Below are positions 2,014 through 14,517 of a DNA stretch of 14,517 nucleotides, one piece after another (positions within the stretch are counted from its first letter, which is position 1; every line of letters starts with the position of its first letter). The notes under the pieces are model-generated. The model made no database searches. It was not told where the DNA came from and saw only the letters and a program-made list of their open reading frames with translations. A program made the translations under genes and the position numbers. The stretch comes from Naegleria gruberi (taxonomy: Eukaryota), in assembly GCA_000004985.1 (NCBI GenBank), contig GG738975.1; one strand, 5' to 3'.

Positions 2014-3039
2014 NNNNNNNNNNNNNNNNNNNNNNNNNNNNNNNNNNNNNNNNNNNNNNNNNNNNNNNNNNNNNNNNNNNNNNNNNNNNNNNNNNNNNNN
2101 NNNNNNNNNNNNNNNNNNNNNNNNNNNNNNNNNNNNNNNNNNNNNNNNNNNNNNNNNNNNNNNNNNNNNNNNNNNNNNNNNNNNNNNNNNNNNNNNNNNN
2201 NNNNNNNNNNNNNNNNNNNNNNNNNNNNNNNNNNNNNNNNNNNNNNNNNNNNNNNNNNNNNNNNNNNNNNNNNNNNNNNNNNNNNNNNNNNNNNNNNNNN
2301 NNNNNNNNNNNNNNNNNNNNNNNNNNNNNNNNNNNNNNNNNNNNNNNNNNNNNNNNNNNNNNNNNNNNNNNNNNNNNNNNNNNNNNNNNNNNNNNNNNNN
2401 NNNNNNNNNNNNNNNNNNNNNNNNNNNNNNNNNNNNNNNNNNNNNNNNNNNNNNNNNNNNNNNNNNNNNNNNNNNNNNNNNNNNNNNNNNNNNNNNNNNN
2501 NNNNNNNNNNNNNNNNNNNNNNNNNNNNNNNNNNNNNNNNNNNNNNNNNNNNNNNNNNNNNNNNNNNNNNNNNNNNNNNNNNNNNNNNNNNNNNNNNNNN
2601 NNNNNNNNNNNNNNNNNNNNNNNNNNNNNNNNNNNNNNNNNNNNNNNNNNNNNNNNNNNNNNNNNNNNNNNNNNNNNNNNNNNNNNNNNNNNNNNNNNNN
2701 NNNNNNNNNNNNNNNNNNNNNNNNNNNNNNNNNNNNNNNNNNNNNNNNNNNNNNNNNNNNNNNNNNNNNNNNNNNNNNNNNNNNNNNNNNNNNNNNNNNN
2801 NNNNNNNNNNNNNNNNNNNNNNNNNNNNNNNNNNNNNNNNNNNNNNNNNNNNNNNNNNNNNNNNNNNNNNNNNNNNNNNNNNNNNNNNNNNNNNNNNNNN
2901 NNNNNNNNNNNNNNNNNNNNNNNNNNNNNNNNNNNNNNNNNNNNNNNNNNNNNNNNNNNNNNNNNNNNNNNNNNNNNNNNNNNNNNNNNNNNNNNNNNNN
3001 NNNNNNNNNNNNNNNNNNNNNNNNNNNNNNNNNNNNNNN
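2014..3039. other. Assembly gap / masked run (1026 N)
   Basis: Uninterrupted n characters. Flanked by coding sequence on both sides. Confidence 0.99.
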
Positions 3040-3040
3040 C

Positions 3041-3631
3041 ATTAACATTATCTATAACTTTAAAGAGGACAGTGATGCTGTGGTGAAAATTCCTGATTCT
3101 CTGGGAGGAGTCAAAACCATATATTGTCACAAGACTGTGCTCTCCAGTGCTTCTGAAATGTTGGAAGTAAATTTTGGACCCAATTGGAGCAATGAAGAGG
3201 ATGAAGATGGAAGAGCCATCATCAATGTTGAACATCTCATTGAAGTTGCCTCAGATCCAAGTGTAATGGAATTTATTATCGAGTATGCCTATGGAATTTT
3301 TGCACCAATCAAGGTTTCTTCCAAGCAAGTAATTCCACTCATTAAGGCTGCACATTTCTATAGAATTCAGGGCCTTCTCGATGAGTGTCTCTACTTGTGT
3401 GTGAATAGGGACAAGCTCTCCTTTTTCGAAGTGGCCGAATCTCTAGAGGATCATTTCGAAGACGAAACCATGGAAGCTTTTGAGGATGTTATGGTAGAAA
3501 TTGGAACTGCCAATTACCCCTTCATTATTGGAGCAAGTGATGAAGAATTAATGAAATTGCCAAAGAGAATGCTTATTAAGATGTTCAGAAAGATTTACAA
3601 AACATACATTCCAAATATCAAAACCTTGTAA
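3041..3631 (+). CDS. BTB/POZ-domain protein, C-terminal portion (N-terminal part in gap 1); may be the 3' end of the FG-repeat gene or a separate gene
   Basis: The frame of the track ORF 3080..3631 (whose 'M' is GTG) stays open upstream to the gap edge at 3040. It reads ...INIIYNFKEDSDAVVKIPDSLGGVKTIYCHKTVLSSASEMLEVNFGPNWSNEEDEDGRAIINVEHLIEVASDPSVMEFIIEYAYGIFAPIKVSSKQVIPLIKAAHFYRIQGLLDECLYLCVN. This is the classic BTB pattern: DVxL...G..F.AHKxVL..S.YF...F....I.L.....P..F..LL.F.Y.G......NV..LL.AA..LQ. Stop TAA at 3629-3631. Confidence 0.75.
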   Translation: MNIIYNFKEDSDAVVKIPDSLGGVKTIYCHKTVLSSASEMLEVNFGPNWSNEEDEDGRAIINVEHLIEVASDPSVMEFIIEYAYGIFAPIKVSSKQVIPLIKAAHFYRIQGLLDECLYLCVNRDKLSFFEVAESLEDHFEDETMEAFEDVMVEIGTANYPFIIGASDEELMKLPKRMLIKMFRKIYKTYIPNIKTL

Positions 3632-3673
3632 CATTCTCGGTGGATTGGAGATAATGTGAATACAATGTATTTA

Positions 3674-4409
3674 TTAGTTTTTGAAAATTCTCATTACAGT
3701 AACCAAATAGTCACGATATTTCTCTCCAAATAAAGAGATTACTTCTTCCTTGCTTTCAAAGGCAGATCTATTATTCTTCCAAACACGGAAACAGAATCTG
3801 TTTCTTGCATTCCATTCAGCTCCATCCTTATCCAAGGTCAATCTTACATGTTTGTAATAACCAGTAATTAACATCTTGACCTTTTCTTTCACAAGTGGAA
3901 TATTTTTAGAGGATTGGAATGAGTTGACTAAATTGTGGAATGGAACAGATCCCTTCAAGTTTCCATGCAAGATTCCAGCAGCTTCAATTTCATCCTCAGA
4001 TTGAATAAAGAGATTAGCAGTTTCATAGGATGCAGAATTGTTAATCAAATGATTAATGGAAATACTAATCTTTTTGCTAATTATTAGTTGAGTGATGGAT
4101 TTCATAAATTTAATTGATTCTTCTTCATTGAAAGGAGAGTAATATTCTCCCTTTTCAATGGCAACTTTCTTCTTGTTTGGAGTTTGAAAGTTGACAGTTT
4201 GAATCAATAAACAAATGAGTCCAGATTTGCTATTTACCATTGAGTGAATATCAGAAATATCCTCCTTTTCATTCAAATACTCTGATGCTACCTTAATGAA
4301 TGGTAAAATATTGGAACGGAAGGATTCGTCCAATTTCGAAACAAGACCAGTTGCAAGTTGACCTAATCTTTGATATTTCCTGAAGAAATTCCACATTAGT
4401 GTTAAATTC
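3674..4409 (-). CDS. C-terminal fragment of a gene emerging from gap 2; possibly the C-terminus of the vWA-domain gene below; weak, degenerate resemblance to an alpha-kinase catalytic core
   Basis: Frame is open from the gap edge (4409) to stop TAA, the complement of 3674-3676. The ATG at 4396 that the track uses as a start is internal, because NLTL precedes it in frame. Only loose matches to alpha-kinase motifs are present (VAIEKGEYYSPFNEEE vs IEGEYIKYNSNSG; SASYETANLFIQSEDEIEAAG vs SHFTxExSxxxLxVxDxQGVG). These are not convincing on their own. Confidence 0.55.
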
Positions 4410-5895
4410 NNNNNNNNNNNNNNNNNNNNNNNNNNNNNNNNNNNNNNNNNNNNNNNNNNNNNNNNNNNNNNNNNNNNNNNNNNNNNNNNNNNNNNNNNNN
4501 NNNNNNNNNNNNNNNNNNNNNNNNNNNNNNNNNNNNNNNNNNNNNNNNNNNNNNNNNNNNNNNNNNNNNNNNNNNNNNNNNNNNNNNNNNNNNNNNNNNN
4601 NNNNNNNNNNNNNNNNNNNNNNNNNNNNNNNNNNNNNNNNNNNNNNNNNNNNNNNNNNNNNNNNNNNNNNNNNNNNNNNNNNNNNNNNNNNNNNNNNNNN
4701 NNNNNNNNNNNNNNNNNNNNNNNNNNNNNNNNNNNNNNNNNNNNNNNNNNNNNNNNNNNNNNNNNNNNNNNNNNNNNNNNNNNNNNNNNNNNNNNNNNNN
4801 NNNNNNNNNNNNNNNNNNNNNNNNNNNNNNNNNNNNNNNNNNNNNNNNNNNNNNNNNNNNNNNNNNNNNNNNNNNNNNNNNNNNNNNNNNNNNNNNNNNN
4901 NNNNNNNNNNNNNNNNNNNNNNNNNNNNNNNNNNNNNNNNNNNNNNNNNNNNNNNNNNNNNNNNNNNNNNNNNNNNNNNNNNNNNNNNNNNNNNNNNNNN
5001 NNNNNNNNNNNNNNNNNNNNNNNNNNNNNNNNNNNNNNNNNNNNNNNNNNNNNNNNNNNNNNNNNNNNNNNNNNNNNNNNNNNNNNNNNNNNNNNNNNNN
5101 NNNNNNNNNNNNNNNNNNNNNNNNNNNNNNNNNNNNNNNNNNNNNNNNNNNNNNNNNNNNNNNNNNNNNNNNNNNNNNNNNNNNNNNNNNNNNNNNNNNN
5201 NNNNNNNNNNNNNNNNNNNNNNNNNNNNNNNNNNNNNNNNNNNNNNNNNNNNNNNNNNNNNNNNNNNNNNNNNNNNNNNNNNNNNNNNNNNNNNNNNNNN
5301 NNNNNNNNNNNNNNNNNNNNNNNNNNNNNNNNNNNNNNNNNNNNNNNNNNNNNNNNNNNNNNNNNNNNNNNNNNNNNNNNNNNNNNNNNNNNNNNNNNNN
5401 NNNNNNNNNNNNNNNNNNNNNNNNNNNNNNNNNNNNNNNNNNNNNNNNNNNNNNNNNNNNNNNNNNNNNNNNNNNNNNNNNNNNNNNNNNNNNNNNNNNN
5501 NNNNNNNNNNNNNNNNNNNNNNNNNNNNNNNNNNNNNNNNNNNNNNNNNNNNNNNNNNNNNNNNNNNNNNNNNNNNNNNNNNNNNNNNNNNNNNNNNNNN
5601 NNNNNNNNNNNNNNNNNNNNNNNNNNNNNNNNNNNNNNNNNNNNNNNNNNNNNNNNNNNNNNNNNNNNNNNNNNNNNNNNNNNNNNNNNNNNNNNNNNNN
5701 NNNNNNNNNNNNNNNNNNNNNNNNNNNNNNNNNNNNNNNNNNNNNNNNNNNNNNNNNNNNNNNNNNNNNNNNNNNNNNNNNNNNNNNNNNNNNNNNNNNN
5801 NNNNNNNNNNNNNNNNNNNNNNNNNNNNNNNNNNNNNNNNNNNNNNNNNNNNNNNNNNNNNNNNNNNNNNNNNNNNNNNNNNNNNNNNNNNNNNN
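4410..5895. other. Assembly gap / masked run (1486 N)
   Basis: Uninterrupted n characters. Interrupts the minus-strand vWA gene. Confidence 0.99.
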
Positions 5896-6582
5896 CATCA
5901 TCCTTATTGACAAGATTCCAACACTTGAATTAGAGGTCAATAATCCAATGAGATTTTCCATCGATTGATTAATTTCATTGGCATCTTTCACATATTGGAA
6001 AGTTCCTTGAACTGAACCCAATTGAGTAATTTGGGTCAATAATGCAACATCGTGACTAGAGGTGAAACCAATGGTGTGAAATTCGAAACTTTGAGTTTTA
6101 GTTTCGAGAACTTTCTTCATCTGTTCAATGGCTTTTTCTCTCTTATGACTGGATCCATCTTGTCCATCGGTGAAAAACAAGATTGCAACCTCAGATTGAC
6201 GATTAAACATGTCTAAATTTGAAATGGCCTCAAATACACAGGTAAAATCAGTTCCTCCACCAGCTTGAATCTGTTCAAGAGTTGATTGTCTAGTTTCGGC
6301 TGGTTTCTTCCTCAAATCATACAACTCTGCAGAGGTATCATAGGTAATCAATACAACATCTGGTGTATCGACAACTTGTTCAAATAAATTCGAAATTGCA
6401 ATCTTTGCTTGATCAATTCCTTGACCACGCATCGATCCAGAAACATCCAACGCAATTACAATTTGCTTTTCCTTCCTCTGAATATTCGAAATGAGATCAA
6501 ATTGAAGACAAGTTATGCTATCATCAATTTCATATTGACGAGTTTCAATAGTGTTATTATCTGATTGTTTGGAGGAGGACAT
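5896..6582 (-). CDS. von Willebrand factor A (vWA) domain protein with complete MIDAS motif, N-terminal portion; continues into gap 2
   Basis: ATG is the complement of 6580-6582, with an A-rich run upstream on the coding strand. Protein: MSSSKQSDNNTIETRQYEIDDSITCLQFDLISNIQRKEKQIVIALDVSGSMRGQGIDQAKIAISNLFEQVVDTPDVVLITYDTSAELYDL...QAGGGTDFTCVFEAISN...VAILFFTDGQDGSS. The DxSxS...GGT...TDG series is the MIDAS metal-binding signature of vWA domains. The DVSGSM codons are at 6430-6450. Confidence 0.8.
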
Positions 6583-6925
6583 TGTTTTTTTTTTTAATTT
6601 GTTTTTTTTGTTGATTCTTGATTGACCAAGTTCATCCCCTGATGTGGTTTAAATATGAATTTGAAGGTTATGGTTGTGGGGAGGATGAACTTTGTGAATG
6701 GATATATGCAATTATGAAAAATACGAAAGGAAGTGTGGTTATATGAAATTACATTTTAATGTCTAGTGTGTTGGTTGACTTTGCAACATGATTATATTTT
6801 CATTCTTATAAATAATTTATTAGGAAAACATTGTCAAAATAACATATTGATTAATTAATTCACACAAGGGGTTTAAATTCATTTCCAATAACATCAAATT
6901 AAAAAGTGATTGATCATTACAAAAG

Positions 6926-7293
6926 TTACTGCTGAAGGATTGAAATACCTCTCTAAATTGAAACAATTGACTGACCTGGATGTTTCTTCATGCAATATTC
7001 GACATGAAGGAGCCAAAGTTCTTAGTGGAATGGCTCAATTAAAAACGCTAGTCTTGCAAGACTGTAATATTGGAATGGAAGGTGCTCTAGAAATAAGCAA
7101 GCTTACCCAATTGACTTCACTCAATATTCATAGTAATAATATTGGTGATAAGGGAGCCGAATCAATCACTACTAAACTAGAAAATCTTACAATTCTCGAT
7201 ATTAGTTTTAGAGAATTTAATGAAGAAATTAAGAAATCCATTTATTCAATGAAGAATTTAACAATAATCAATAATAATAGTATCATTGATTAA
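6926..7293 (+). CDS. Leucine-rich repeat (ribonuclease-inhibitor / RNI-type LRR) coding exon; no in-frame ATG, 5' boundary uncertain (possible splice acceptor AG at 6924-6925)
   Basis: The track ORF 6910..7293 starts at TTG directly after an in-frame TGA (6907-6909). Translation shows about 3.5 RNI-type repeats of 24-28 residues: LTDLDVSSCNIRHEGAKVLSGMAQ / LKTLVLQDCNIGMEGALEISKLTQ / LTSLNIHSNNIGDKGAESITTKLEN / LTILDISF. Stop TAA at 7291-7293. Confidence 0.45.
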
Positions 7294-7335: not shown

Positions 7336-7725
7336 TTATTCATTGAAATATATTGAGGTAATCATTCCAAGAGACAATGCCATCAACACAACAATATCAA
7401 CATTACAAACTCTTACAATCTGTCTATTTACCATTGACTGTTTTTTTGATAATCTACTCAACCAAATAAAGGATGCCACACTAACAATACCAGATCCAAA
7501 TGCCAATCCATACAATTCTGGTCTAAATGCTCCATAACAATGAAAAGTTCCAAGTAATCCAAATAGTACAGCTCTATGTCTCATTAAAATTTCAAGATTC
7601 TCCTCATTGATTGGAATTCCATATAATTTCTCTAATTGCCTTGATCCTAGAAGGCCAGATAGTGGCAACAAGTGGACAATACCCGAAAGAAGAAGAGAGG
7701 CAGCTGGAATGTAATGATGAAACAT
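7336..7725 (-). CDS. Small (129 aa) predicted membrane protein with about 4 hydrophobic helices; function unknown
   Basis: ATG is the complement of 7723-7725, with an A-rich Kozak (ttctttaaaaATG on the minus strand). Stop TAA is the complement of 7336-7338. Hydrophobic segments: AASLLLSGIVHLLPLSGLLG, AVLFGLLGTFHCYGAF, GLAFGSGIVSVASFIWL, IVVLMALSLGMITSIY. Confidence 0.55.
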   Translation of the reverse strand: MFHHYIPAASLLLSGIVHLLPLSGLLGSRQLEKLYGIPINEENLEILMRHRAVLFGLLGTFHCYGAFRPELYGLAFGSGIVSVASFIWLSRLSKKQSMVNRQIVRVCNVDIVVLMALSLGMITSIYFNE

Positions 7726-8314: not shown

Positions 8315-11300
8315 NNNNNNNNNNNNNNNNNNNNNNNNNNNNNNNNNNNNNNNNNNNNNNNNNNNNNNNNNNNNNNNNNNNNNNNNNNNNNNNNNNNNNN
8401 NNNNNNNNNNNNNNNNNNNNNNNNNNNNNNNNNNNNNNNNNNNNNNNNNNNNNNNNNNNNNNNNNNNNNNNNNNNNNNNNNNNNNNNNNNNNNNNNNNNN
8501 NNNNNNNNNNNNNNNNNNNNNNNNNNNNNNNNNNNNNNNNNNNNNNNNNNNNNNNNNNNNNNNNNNNNNNNNNNNNNNNNNNNNNNNNNNNNNNNNNNNN
8601 NNNNNNNNNNNNNNNNNNNNNNNNNNNNNNNNNNNNNNNNNNNNNNNNNNNNNNNNNNNNNNNNNNNNNNNNNNNNNNNNNNNNNNNNNNNNNNNNNNNN
8701 NNNNNNNNNNNNNNNNNNNNNNNNNNNNNNNNNNNNNNNNNNNNNNNNNNNNNNNNNNNNNNNNNNNNNNNNNNNNNNNNNNNNNNNNNNNNNNNNNNNN
8801 NNNNNNNNNNNNNNNNNNNNNNNNNNNNNNNNNNNNNNNNNNNNNNNNNNNNNNNNNNNNNNNNNNNNNNNNNNNNNNNNNNNNNNNNNNNNNNNNNNNN
8901 NNNNNNNNNNNNNNNNNNNNNNNNNNNNNNNNNNNNNNNNNNNNNNNNNNNNNNNNNNNNNNNNNNNNNNNNNNNNNNNNNNNNNNNNNNNNNNNNNNNN
9001 NNNNNNNNNNNNNNNNNNNNNNNNNNNNNNNNNNNNNNNNNNNNNNNNNNNNNNNNNNNNNNNNNNNNNNNNNNNNNNNNNNNNNNNNNNNNNNNNNNNN
9101 NNNNNNNNNNNNNNNNNNNNNNNNNNNNNNNNNNNNNNNNNNNNNNNNNNNNNNNNNNNNNNNNNNNNNNNNNNNNNNNNNNNNNNNNNNNNNNNNNNNN
9201 NNNNNNNNNNNNNNNNNNNNNNNNNNNNNNNNNNNNNNNNNNNNNNNNNNNNNNNNNNNNNNNNNNNNNNNNNNNNNNNNNNNNNNNNNNNNNNNNNNNN
9301 NNNNNNNNNNNNNNNNNNNNNNNNNNNNNNNNNNNNNNNNNNNNNNNNNNNNNNNNNNNNNNNNNNNNNNNNNNNNNNNNNNNNNNNNNNNNNNNNNNNN
9401 NNNNNNNNNNNNNNNNNNNNNNNNNNNNNNNNNNNNNNNNNNNNNNNNNNNNNNNNNNNNNNNNNNNNNNNNNNNNNNNNNNNNNNNNNNNNNNNNNNNN
9501 NNNNNNNNNNNNNNNNNNNNNNNNNNNNNNNNNNNNNNNNNNNNNNNNNNNNNNNNNNNNNNNNNNNNNNNNNNNNNNNNNNNNNNNNNNNNNNNNNNNN
9601 NNNNNNNNNNNNNNNNNNNNNNNNNNNNNNNNNNNNNNNNNNNNNNNNNNNNNNNNNNNNNNNNNNNNNNNNNNNNNNNNNNNNNNNNNNNNNNNNNNNN
9701 NNNNNNNNNNNNNNNNNNNNNNNNNNNNNNNNNNNNNNNNNNNNNNNNNNNNNNNNNNNNNNNNNNNNNNNNNNNNNNNNNNNNNNNNNNNNNNNNNNNN
9801 NNNNNNNNNNNNNNNNNNNNNNNNNNNNNNNNNNNNNNNNNNNNNNNNNNNNNNNNNNNNNNNNNNNNNNNNNNNNNNNNNNNNNNNNNNNNNNNNNNNN
9901 NNNNNNNNNNNNNNNNNNNNNNNNNNNNNNNNNNNNNNNNNNNNNNNNNNNNNNNNNNNNNNNNNNNNNNNNNNNNNNNNNNNNNNNNNNNNNNNNNNNN
10001 NNNNNNNNNNNNNNNNNNNNNNNNNNNNNNNNNNNNNNNNNNNNNNNNNNNNNNNNNNNNNNNNNNNNNNNNNNNNNNNNNNNNNNNNNNNNNNNNNNNN
10101 NNNNNNNNNNNNNNNNNNNNNNNNNNNNNNNNNNNNNNNNNNNNNNNNNNNNNNNNNNNNNNNNNNNNNNNNNNNNNNNNNNNNNNNNNNNNNNNNNNNN
10201 NNNNNNNNNNNNNNNNNNNNNNNNNNNNNNNNNNNNNNNNNNNNNNNNNNNNNNNNNNNNNNNNNNNNNNNNNNNNNNNNNNNNNNNNNNNNNNNNNNNN
10301 NNNNNNNNNNNNNNNNNNNNNNNNNNNNNNNNNNNNNNNNNNNNNNNNNNNNNNNNNNNNNNNNNNNNNNNNNNNNNNNNNNNNNNNNNNNNNNNNNNNN
10401 NNNNNNNNNNNNNNNNNNNNNNNNNNNNNNNNNNNNNNNNNNNNNNNNNNNNNNNNNNNNNNNNNNNNNNNNNNNNNNNNNNNNNNNNNNNNNNNNNNNN
10501 NNNNNNNNNNNNNNNNNNNNNNNNNNNNNNNNNNNNNNNNNNNNNNNNNNNNNNNNNNNNNNNNNNNNNNNNNNNNNNNNNNNNNNNNNNNNNNNNNNNN
10601 NNNNNNNNNNNNNNNNNNNNNNNNNNNNNNNNNNNNNNNNNNNNNNNNNNNNNNNNNNNNNNNNNNNNNNNNNNNNNNNNNNNNNNNNNNNNNNNNNNNN
10701 NNNNNNNNNNNNNNNNNNNNNNNNNNNNNNNNNNNNNNNNNNNNNNNNNNNNNNNNNNNNNNNNNNNNNNNNNNNNNNNNNNNNNNNNNNNNNNNNNNNN
10801 NNNNNNNNNNNNNNNNNNNNNNNNNNNNNNNNNNNNNNNNNNNNNNNNNNNNNNNNNNNNNNNNNNNNNNNNNNNNNNNNNNNNNNNNNNNNNNNNNNNN
10901 NNNNNNNNNNNNNNNNNNNNNNNNNNNNNNNNNNNNNNNNNNNNNNNNNNNNNNNNNNNNNNNNNNNNNNNNNNNNNNNNNNNNNNNNNNNNNNNNNNNN
11001 NNNNNNNNNNNNNNNNNNNNNNNNNNNNNNNNNNNNNNNNNNNNNNNNNNNNNNNNNNNNNNNNNNNNNNNNNNNNNNNNNNNNNNNNNNNNNNNNNNNN
11101 NNNNNNNNNNNNNNNNNNNNNNNNNNNNNNNNNNNNNNNNNNNNNNNNNNNNNNNNNNNNNNNNNNNNNNNNNNNNNNNNNNNNNNNNNNNNNNNNNNNN
11201 NNNNNNNNNNNNNNNNNNNNNNNNNNNNNNNNNNNNNNNNNNNNNNNNNNNNNNNNNNNNNNNNNNNNNNNNNNNNNNNNNNNNNNNNNNNNNNNNNNNN

Positions 11301-12853
11301 NNNNNNNNNNNNNNNNNNNNNNNNNNNNNNNNNNNNNNNNNNNNNNNNNNNNNNNNNNNNNNNNNNNNNNNNNNNNNNNNNNNNNNNNNNNNNNNNNNNN
11401 NNNNNNNNNNNNNNNNNNNNNNNNNNNNNNNNNNNNNNNNNNNNNNNNNNNNNNNNNNNNNNNNNNNNNNNNNNNNNNNNNNNNNNNNNNNNNNNNNNNN
11501 NNNNNNNNNNNNNNNNNNNNNNNNNNNNNNNNNNNNNNNNNNNNNNNNNNNNNNNNNNNNNNNNNNNNNNNNNNNNNNNNNNNNNNNNNNNNNNNNNNNN
11601 NNNNNNNNNNNNNNNNNNNNNNNNNNNNNNNNNNNNNNNNNNNNNNNNNNNNNNNNNNNNNNNNNNNNNNNNNNNNNNNNNNNNNNNNNNNNNNNNNNNN
11701 NNNNNNNNNNNNNNNNNNNNNNNNNNNNNNNNNNNNNNNNNNNNNNNNNNNNNNNNNNNNNNNNNNNNNNNNNNNNNNNNNNNNNNNNNNNNNNNNNNNN
11801 NNNNNNNNNNNNNNNNNNNNNNNNNNNNNNNNNNNNNNNNNNNNNNNNNNNNNNNNNNNNNNNNNNNNNNNNNNNNNNNNNNNNNNNNNNNNNNNNNNNN
11901 NNNNNNNNNNNNNNNNNNNNNNNNNNNNNNNNNNNNNNNNNNNNNNNNNNNNNNNNNNNNNNNNNNNNNNNNNNNNNNNNNNNNNNNNNNNNNNNNNNNN
12001 NNNNNNNNNNNNNNNNNNNNNNNNNNNNNNNNNNNNNNNNNNNNNNNNNNNNNNNNNNNNNNNNNNNNNNNNNNNNNNNNNNNNNNNNNNNNNNNNNNNN
12101 NNNNNNNNNNNNNNNNNNNNNNNNNNNNNNNNNNNNNNNNNNNNNNNNNNNNNNNNNNNNNNNNNNNNNNNNNNNNNNNNNNNNNNNNNNNNNNNNNNNN
12201 NNNNNNNNNNNNNNNNNNNNNNNNNNNNNNNNNNNNNNNNNNNNNNNNNNNNNNNNNNNNNNNNNNNNNNNNNNNNNNNNNNNNNNNNNNNNNNNNNNNN
12301 NNNNNNNNNNNNNNNNNNNNNNNNNNNNNNNNNNNNNNNNNNNNNNNNNNNNNNNNNNNNNNNNNNNNNNNNNNNNNNNNNNNNNNNNNNNNNNNNNNNN
12401 NNNNNNNNNNNNNNNNNNNNNNNNNNNNNNNNNNNNNNNNNNNNNNNNNNNNNNNNNNNNNNNNNNNNNNNNNNNNNNNNNNNNNNNNNNNNNNNNNNNN
12501 NNNNNNNNNNNNNNNNNNNNNNNNNNNNNNNNNNNNNNNNNNNNNNNNNNNNNNNNNNNNNNNNNNNNNNNNNNNNNNNNNNNNNNNNNNNNNNNNNNNN
12601 NNNNNNNNNNNNNNNNNNNNNNNNNNNNNNNNNNNNNNNNNNNNNNNNNNNNNNNNNNNNNNNNNNNNNNNNNNNNNNNNNNNNNNNNNNNNNNNNNNNN
12701 NNNNNNNNNNNNNNNNNNNNNNNNNNNNNNNNNNNNNNNNNNNNNNNNNNNNNNNNNNNNNNNNNNNNNNNNNNNNNNNNNNNNNNNNNNNNNNNNNNNN
12801 NNNNNNNNNNNNNNNNNNNNNNNNNNNNNNNNNNNNNNNNNNNNNNNNNNNNN
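8315..12853. other. Assembly gap / masked run (4539 N)
   Basis: Uninterrupted n characters. Swallows the 3' part of the F-box-like gene and most of the Bub1/Mad3-like gene. Confidence 0.99.
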
Positions 12854-13752
12854 CTTCCAGGTAGCATGATTGGCTGGAGTGGCTTAATTTCCTGTAAAGG
12901 TTGTTTACCAAATATTCTCCTCAAATCAGTGGCCTTTCTACCACCTTTCAGAGGAATGATATTCTCCTTAGCAGCTTCAAATTCCTCAAAATCAACAATG
13001 ACCCTTTCCTCTGTTGATGTTGGTTGTTGTGTTGAATCTTGAATTCCACTTTGATTGTTATTATTATGAGTATTAATGGCAATTGGAGATTGGAAACTAT
13101 TAGAAGGTGAAACACTCAAAGATGGAAAACCCTGATTATTGGAGGAGGTAATAATTGAGGAAGGAGAGCAACTAGTCGATGGTGATGAATACACCGAAAA
13201 GGTCATACTATTCACAGTAGGTGAAGAACTCAAACCAAAGGATTGTTGTGGTGAGGATGACAATGAACCAATTTGATTATTATTATTAGTACTTGGAATA
13301 TCTAGCAAGTTATTCCCATTAGTAGGCATCATGAGCATTTGATTTCCACTACTAAAACCTAATTCATTTGTATTAATTGTATTATTATTAATTGTATTAA
13401 AAGATGATGAAGGAAAAACAAGATTAGGCTTTGATAAACTTCTACTCGGACGATTCATCAAGAGACCAGGGGCAGAACTACAACTCGTCAATGATGATCC
13501 AACATTGCTAATAGTATTAGTTGGTGATGGATTAACACTGGAGGAGGAAGGCTTTGATAATCTCAAGCCATTGTTGGATGATGGAAACGAGACGGAATTA
13601 GTGGGGAGTGTGATGGTGGGAGTTCCTAGGCGTTGAAAGGAGGATGGTCTGATCAGTGATGCTGGAGGCGGTTTATTGTTTGATGAAGCTTGCTGTTGAT
13701 TGATTGAAGAAGGGAGAGTAGGAGGGAATCGCAAGCGTTGACTTTCAAACAT
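12854..13752 (-). CDS. Bub1/Mad3(BubR1)-family spindle-assembly-checkpoint protein, N-terminal portion: about 260 aa S/N/T/P-rich low-complexity extension followed by the conserved KEN-box block; continues into gap 3
   Basis: ATG is the complement of 13750-13752 (ccagaaaaaaATG on the minus strand). Open frame runs to the gap edge. The last visible residues are ...EERVIVDFEEFEAAKENIIPLKGGRKATDLRRIFGKQPLQEIKPLQPIMLPG. The DFEEFEAAKENIIPLKGGRKATDL block parallels the N-terminal KEN-box region of yeast Mad3 (...[24 protein letters not shown]) and BubR1 (SKENVQPLRQGR). KEN codons are the complement of 12961-12969. Confidence 0.72.
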
Positions 13753-13992: not shown

Positions 13993-14517
13993 TTATTTCT
14001 TTTCAATTAATCTAGTAAACAAGTCACTAATCAATTCTTCATCCTTAGGTACCTCTTTCATTAAAATTTCATGATTTGGATGTTCTTCCCAACTTGGATA
14101 TGGAGCTTCTTCATAAATTTCACCAAACTTTTCACTCAACTCAGTCTTCAACTCTTCCCAAACTCTTCCTAAATGCATATAAGGTCCAACATAGTGTTTC
14201 TTCAAATAAACTCCTTTTGGAATGGTTTTAAGTTGAATAGGAAGAGAATACGAACAAGTTTCGTTCACTTTCTTTATACTTTCTTCAAATTCTTCTCTCT
14301 TTGAAGGAAGATTGAATTTTTCAACAGTTTCTGCTGTGAGAAAAACAGCATTCTCCAAATCTACATCTTCCACAGAATCGAAACGATTGTAAAACGTAGC
14401 TGGATACATTCTTGATTGTTCACCAACTAATTTCAATGCCATTTCATGAGTTTGTTTAATCCAATTGGTAAATTCAGGAGTAATGACACTAACTGATGTC
14501 TGGAGACACTCAGATAG
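13993..14517 (-). CDS. GyrI-like (AraC-effector-binding-type) small-molecule-binding domain protein; C-terminal part, ORF remains open to the right window edge so the true start is outside the window
   Basis: Stop TAA is the complement of 13993-13995. The ATG at 14442 chosen by the track is internal, because the frame is open for 25 more codons to 14517 (LSECLQTSVSVITPEFTNWIKQTHE-M...). The motif ...TIPKGVYLKKHYVGPYMHLGRVWEEL... fits the GyrI-like signature (IPAGxYAVxxHxGPYxxLxxxYxxL). Confidence 0.5.
   Translation of the reverse strand, partial: LSECLQTSVSVITPEFTNWIKQTHEMALKLVGEQSRMYPATFYNRFDSVEDVDLENAVFLTAETVEKFNLPSKREEFEESIKKVNETCSYSLPIQLKTIPKGVYLKKHYVGPYMHLGRVWEELKTELSEKFGEIYEEAPYPSWEEHPNHEILMKEVPKDEELISDLFTRLIEKK

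Follow-up and report, generated by a model that had tools for sequence, protein, structure and literature searches.

A vWA-domain gene of Naegleria gruberi interrupted by an assembly gap: a probable member of an uncharacterised protein family

The window analysed here is a whole scaffold of Naegleria gruberi, 14,517 nucleotides (nt) in length, on which two coding pieces lie on the same strand at either side of a run of N: an N-terminal piece that encodes a vWA domain, and a C-terminal piece with no ready assignment (Table 1). Two questions arise from this arrangement. Are the pieces the ends of a single gene, and is the C-terminal piece a dead or highly divergent alpha-kinase-like domain, as was proposed in a preliminary description of the locus made from its letters alone? 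We consider it highly probable that the answer is yes to the first and no to the second, in other words that the locus, NAEGRDRAFT_76388, holds one gene for a soluble protein of some 970-1010 residues belonging to an uncharacterised family, with an all-helical tail that is unrelated to alpha-kinases. For the most part the locus is ordinary, a gap-broken and mis-modelled gene of that family, and the interest lies in correcting the public record and in the family itself.

The two coding pieces and the gap between them

Three runs of N interrupt the scaffold (2014-3039, 4410-5895 and 8315-12853; together 7051 nt, or 49%), the second of which, gap 2, separates the two pieces. The N-terminal piece enters the gap with its frame still open. 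On the other side an open frame leaves the gap on the same strand, as the preliminary description had it, although the first complete codon lies at 4408 and not at 4409; the distance of 42 nt between its stop and the stop of the converging BTB open reading frame (ORF, 3080..3631) had been given correctly.

Evidence for a single gene comes from homologous proteins. An exhaustive HMMER search (E<=0.001) with the C-terminal piece alone recovered 66 relatives; the exhaustive mode was needed, as a word-indexed search returned none with this piece and only four proteins with the alignment of C-terminal domains (C-domains). Among the relatives of at least 900 residues, 30 of 31 have at the N-terminus a vWA domain that is homologous to the N-terminal piece and always lies 546-749 residues upstream of the C-domain. 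The closest full-length homolog, the metagenomic protein P0070 (1011 residues), aligns with the N-terminal piece over its residues 2-231 (50% identity, E 6e-69) and with the C-terminal piece over residues 780-1009 (34% identity, E 2e-45), the second alignment ending two residues before the P0070 stop. P0070 is encoded by a single uninterrupted ORF of 3036 nt, which a Ras gene adjoins on the metagenomic contig. Both pieces are most similar to one and the same group of homologs, the P0005/P0070 cluster, as is expected if they derive from one gene. Residues 234-762 of P0070 are without counterpart in the window, and these 529 residues call for 1587 nt where the gap offers 1486, a space too short to accommodate the close of one gene, an intergenic stretch and the beginning of the next. 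The suggestion in the preliminary description that the pieces form a single gene is thus strongly supported; our confidence is high, though short of complete, that, as judged by sequence comparison, the pieces form the two termini of a single gene of about 970-1010 codons. Within the family the agreement extends to the order of the two parts, the start, the stop, the motifs and the invariant residues.

The public record of this gene is accordingly in need of revision. Both pieces are 100% identical to P0004, a protein of 454 residues (XP_002668693.1 / EFC35949.1 / UniProt D2W4Q3) deposited as “predicted protein”, the C-terminal piece corresponding to its residues 225-454. When the model was rebuilt, exons 6582..5912 and 4367..3674 translated exactly to P0004, with the GT..AG “intron” between them joining residue 223 and a split codon to “LGQLATG...”. 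This intron, made up almost entirely of N, is an artefact of gene prediction across the assembly gap. Compared with the rest of the family, the Naegleria copy lacks its middle third here because of the gap, so that the deposited model is only 454 residues long and misses about 530; correcting it is the main value of the finding.

Four points weigh against a single gene. The middle of the gene is absent from the sequence, and homologs alone speak for its continuity at this locus; taken literally, the length of the gap places the two frames out of phase by 2 nt (6582-4408 = 2174 = 3x724+2); going by the homolog, the gap falls about 100 nt short of the expected length; and the scaffold is small and about half N, which makes misassembly or a pseudogene possible. 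The frame offset carries little weight, given that draft scaffolds carry estimated gap lengths and that short introns are possible. These same features, in a scaffold of 14.5 kb with three gaps, are what would favor a pseudogene or an assembly chimera, in which both pieces would come from the vWA family while no functional single gene exists here, the scaffold having been collapsed or misjoined. However, both pieces are intact open frames without internal stops, the MIDAS (metal ion-dependent adhesion site) motif and all six invariant residues of the C-domain are kept, the closest homolog cluster is shared, and the gap sizes on which the mismatch depends are estimates; we therefore regard this explanation as improbable.

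The chance that two genes are present is smaller again, and we judge it very slight. A short vWA gene would then end within the gap, and a separate gene for the helical domain would begin either within it or at the ATG at 4396, which opens an ORF of 240 residues. The phase difference would fit, and some relatives of the C-domain are indeed short (e.g., P0031 from Anaeramoeba, 394 residues), but most of the short relatives that have a contig record stem from contigs that are themselves short, and they are probably fragmentary. Two separate genes also agree poorly with the frames that run open to both edges of the gap, with the same order of both domains in nearly all long relatives, with a closest homolog whose continuous ORF matches both pieces from end to end, and with the roughly 1590 nt that this homolog needs between them. 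A single gene remains the reading that we adopt in what follows.

The helical C-terminal domain and the question of an alpha-kinase

The C-terminal piece was modelled with AlphaFold2 together with 24 homologs, which yielded a mean predicted local distance difference test (pLDDT) score of 90.3, 12 helices and only isolated beta-bridge residues, an almost entirely helical fold; in the family architecture read from a model of P0070, the C-terminal domain is all-helical and about 190 residues long. A Foldseek search with the model gave no match at E<=0.001, its neighbours being only generic helical-repeat structures, and PDB sequence searches with the piece returned only noise. In alignment A2 the residues Q70, F134, G153, K176, D193 and W199 are invariant throughout the family, and the piece keeps all six, as well as 27 of the 39 consensus positions (family range 26-38), which argues that it is not degenerate but a normal member of the family, even with the HxKNxxRR motif relaxed to FQTPNKKK.

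Alpha-kinases have a two-lobed alpha/beta fold with a beta-sheet N-lobe, and a model that is almost wholly helical is incompatible with a beta-rich lobe of this kind. The sequence searches point in the same direction, with the reservation that the filters of HMMER may hide matches above approximately E 0.1. No Pfam match of any kind was found for the C-terminal piece at E<=10, nor did the Alpha_kinase model (PF02816) match any of 25 C-domains (the piece and 24 homologous ones) at E<=10 or any of five homologous proteins, four complete and one truncated at the N-terminus, at E<=1. A profile of the C-domain, run against all PDB chains at E<=10, found no alpha-kinase chain, whether of TRPM7, MHCK A, eEF2K, ALPK1 or another, and only pentatricopeptide-repeat (PPR) noise; with a full-length profile at the same threshold the best 60 matches all fell on the vWA region, with ArnB (8s05) at the top and no alpha-kinase chain among them. 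The zinc module, whose Cys and His positions the preliminary description had singled out, is likewise without trace: across the 25 C-domains, no alignment column of Cys or His is conserved to 60%, and neither of the two Cys of the piece is conserved.

The idea of an alpha-kinase tail had rested on short strings of the type EGEY..FN and S..YE...EAAG, taken as faint echoes of alpha-kinase motifs. The strings are there (EKGEYYSPFN and SASYETANLFIQSEDEIEAAG), but they coincide with conserved motifs that are the vWA family's own, AIxxGxYxxPF and AxxFxxTxDxxEAAGxLxG. It had also rested on dictyostelid alpha-kinases with N-terminal vWA domains, VwkA and AK1 being named. Fusions of vWA and alpha-kinase domains do exist in protists, in VwkA and in eight proteins of Tetrahymena, whereas Dictyostelium AK1 carries an Arf-GAP domain instead (PMC2827801); moreover, the DNA here is that of Naegleria gruberi, not of a dictyostelid. 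The vWA alpha-kinases and the present family have in common that they are cytoplasmic proteins of protists with a vWA domain at the N-terminus (PMC2827801). VwkA is otherwise a much shorter and different protein, in which the vWA motif spans residues 121-233 and the kinase forms the extreme C-terminus (398-592; PMC2827801), as opposed to a family of about 1000 residues with another middle, in which neither an alpha-kinase domain (by sequence, profile or fold) nor a zinc module is seen. With no Alpha_kinase match at relaxed thresholds, an outcome named beforehand as refuting the proposal, together with the helical model and the lack of a zinc module, a VwkA-like architecture with a dead or highly divergent kinase tail has next to no probability. 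Annotation as a vWA alpha-kinase is tempting, but it should not be propagated.

Domain architecture and possible function

In the N-terminal piece, residues 41-207 match Pfam VWA (E 2.9e-11), with further matches of the piece to VWA_2 and VWA_3, and the MIDAS set is complete (D46, S48, S50, T111 and D139); the vWA domain that the preliminary description had placed about 40 residues from the N-terminus is thus confirmed. As to why the domain starts there, a comparison with ArnB of Sulfolobus is instructive. In ArnB a vWA domain is inserted into a beta-sandwich, whose topology it splits, and a helical bundle follows, an arrangement that its authors take for the archaeal equivalent of the Sec23/24 core, and the vWA-sandwich module serves as an interaction platform in both (PMC12852372). 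A model of P0070 indicates that the N-terminal piece would comprise two beta-strands of such a split sandwich (residues ~11-31), the vWA domain (41 to ~215) and the first strand after it, and the leading residues, as the first two strands, would account for the late start of the domain. The predicted N-terminal module of the family would resemble those of ArnB and Sec23/24, and would add a eukaryotic and viral branch to this type of vWA-sandwich architecture. The resemblance has clear limits. Sequence identity with ArnB / ArnE (PDB 8S05, 5A8J) is only 16%; ArnB, of about 380 residues, has a four-helix regulatory bundle at its C-terminal end, whereas the family runs on for some 700 residues without known relatives; and no zinc-finger or gelsolin domain is seen in the family. 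The C-terminal helical bundle of ArnB is phospho-regulated and bound by ArnA, a partner with FHA and zinc-finger domains (PMC12852372); no ArnA-like FHA/zinc-finger partner was seen here, though no search was aimed at partners.

A different comparison is offered by the cpRAS-VWA proteins of protists, which are about 840-970 residues long and have a scattered phylogenetic distribution that includes Naegleria; a circularly permuted Ras domain occupies their N-terminal part, and their C-terminal half holds the vWA domain (Elias and Novotny 2008; PMC2430557). They share with the present family the vWA domain, the patchy occurrence among protists and a similar length, and differ from it in the C-terminal rather than N-terminal position of that domain. 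Membership of this group was rejected, as the vWA domain of the Naegleria protein starts at residue 41 and no Ras Pfam match was found in the complete homologs at E<=1.

The architecture of the whole protein was taken from a model of P0070 (pLDDT 82.9; Table 1), the motifs of the middle region, ATLNxxAY..KKLDxR among them, being derived from alignments A1, A3 and A4. By this model, gap 2 would hide about 530 codons, for the remainder of the beta-sandwich, the long helices, the alpha/beta core and a further helical region. Conservation in the family is highest in this alpha/beta core, residues 459-545 of P0070 (DGDCLCLxLxxxRxxxAIxDPS ... HGGF ... PLYIxxEHW), which has no detectable relative in Pfam or in PDB sequence searches. 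Beyond approximately residue 320 the family proteins as a whole have no detectable relatives: on full-length homologs Pfam finds the vWA domain only, NCBIfam gives matches to the vWA region only and PADLOC none, and a profile of the middle region against the PDB yields only noise. A relationship to prokaryotic defence systems was considered and found unsupported, given the NCBIfam and PADLOC results. The family thus comprises proteins of about 1000 residues in which Pfam models cover the vWA domain only and about 700 residues have no relative of solved structure.

As a rule, an intact MIDAS holds a divalent cation, and an acidic side chain from the ligand protein completes the coordination of that cation. 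The N-terminus of the present protein is hydrophilic and no segment resembles a membrane helix, so that, judging by composition, the protein is most likely soluble and cytoplasmic. We suggest that it probably acts as a metal-dependent protein-interaction scaffold in the cytoplasm: the MIDAS would capture an acidic residue of one partner, and the helical C-domain, which weakly resembles peptide-binding superhelices of the VHS/CID type, might engage another partner or exert control over the first. A point against this proposal is that the invariant polar residues of the C-domain (Q, K, D, W) might just as well indicate an active site. The conserved alpha/beta core, rather than the C-domain, could also be the functional centre of the protein.

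A more far-reaching reading is that the roughly 700 residues after the N-terminal module are undescribed domains common to giant viruses and to free-living protists that are only distantly related (Heterolobosea, Metamonada, ciliates), that the invariant Q/K/D/W form a new ligand-binding or catalytic site, and that the family has moved between giant viruses and their hosts. We offer this tentatively, as a possibility that is rather more likely to fail than to hold.

Distribution of the family and other features of the scaffold

Table 1. Features of the scaffold, of the homolog P0070 and of other family members
Feature	Located on	Position	Strand	Remarks
N-terminal coding piece	scaffold	5896..6582	-	229 codons from ATG at 6582, without stop; from translation and Pfam
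MIDAS DxSxS	scaffold	6433..6447	-	D46-V-S48-G-S50 (DVSGS, residues 46-50); motif position from ATG 6582
MIDAS T111	scaffold	6250..6252	-	Thr of GGGTDF; motif position
MIDAS D139	scaffold	6166..6168	-	Asp of FFTDGQD; motif position
Gap 2	scaffold	4410..5895		1486 N
Artefactual GT..AG “intron” of deposited model	scaffold	4368..5911	-	1544 nt, 1486 of them N
C-terminal coding piece	scaffold	3674..4408	-	244 codons (4408..3677) and stop 3676..3674; frame open to gap edge
Conserved core of C-terminal domain	scaffold	3719..4231	-	residues ~60-230 of C-terminal piece; alignment A2
Two beta-strands	P0070	9-31		predicted, P0070 model
vWA domain	P0070	41-220		predicted, P0070 model
Further beta-strands	P0070	223-281		predicted, P0070 model
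Long helices	P0070	294-431		predicted, P0070 model
Alpha/beta core	P0070	459-545		predicted, P0070 model; most conserved motifs (DCLCL..AIxDPS, HGGF)
Helical region	P0070	550-742		predicted, P0070 model; TIPFLVL, EEExRR
Low-confidence linker (disordered)	P0070	743-780		predicted, P0070 model
C-terminal helical domain	P0070	783-1010		predicted, P0070 model
Paralog NAEGRDRAFT_62168 (XP_002682397.1)	N. gruberi			1065 aa
Member EP00761_P009190	Pharyngomonas kirbyi			
Member KAJ5068179.1	Anaeramoeba ignava			
Member	Anaeramoeba flamelloides			
Member P0010 (OMJ92904.1)	Stentor coeruleus			1629 aa; two C-domains at 824-993 and 1364-1533
Family member	L002 (60 kb)	10001-13291		neighbours: tRNA synthetases including class I, photolyase, MutS_V protein, Rbx1-type RING protein
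Family member	L004 (529 kb)	10001-13063		neighbours: two XRN nucleases (XRN_N), helicases

The family is represented in several supergroups of protists as well as on giant-virus-like contigs, which gives it a modest wider interest (Table 1). Naegleria gruberi itself has a second, longer member; a literature search found no mention of the two Naegleria locus tags and accessions. Going by the two copies in the Stentor protein P0010, the C-terminal helical domain appears to behave as an independent module that can be duplicated. Nine family members are without a detectable vWA domain, and Pfam finds no alternative N-terminal domain in them.

Further members come from densely packed metagenomic contigs of giant-virus-like appearance. 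Two of these, L002 and L004, look like giant-virus contigs by gene content alone, and this occurrence suggests a family common to giant viruses and protists. A further homolog, at L001 1404-3842, has a vWA domain with 46% identity and a coding sequence in three ORFs (1404-2237, 2253-2471 and 2576-3703), apparently split by short introns; L001 ends just inside the C-domain, at “...ENGEFNILTESQSFSPLAEE”.

On the Naegleria scaffold, at least three interruptions of genes by gaps can be recognised, namely that of the S-rich gene (1068..) with the BTB gene, that of the vWA gene, and that of the genes 7923.. and ..13752. An ORF on the plus strand (6910-7293) encodes leucine-rich repeats (LRR_6, E 7e-16), and on the strand opposite to it an ORF at 7336-7725 (minus) encodes a hydrophobic product of 129 residues without Pfam match. 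Finally, the ORF at 13993-14442 (minus strand, 149 residues) shows a weak match, below threshold, to a GyrI-like small-molecule-binding domain (E 0.004, 17.8 bits compared with a cut-off of 26).

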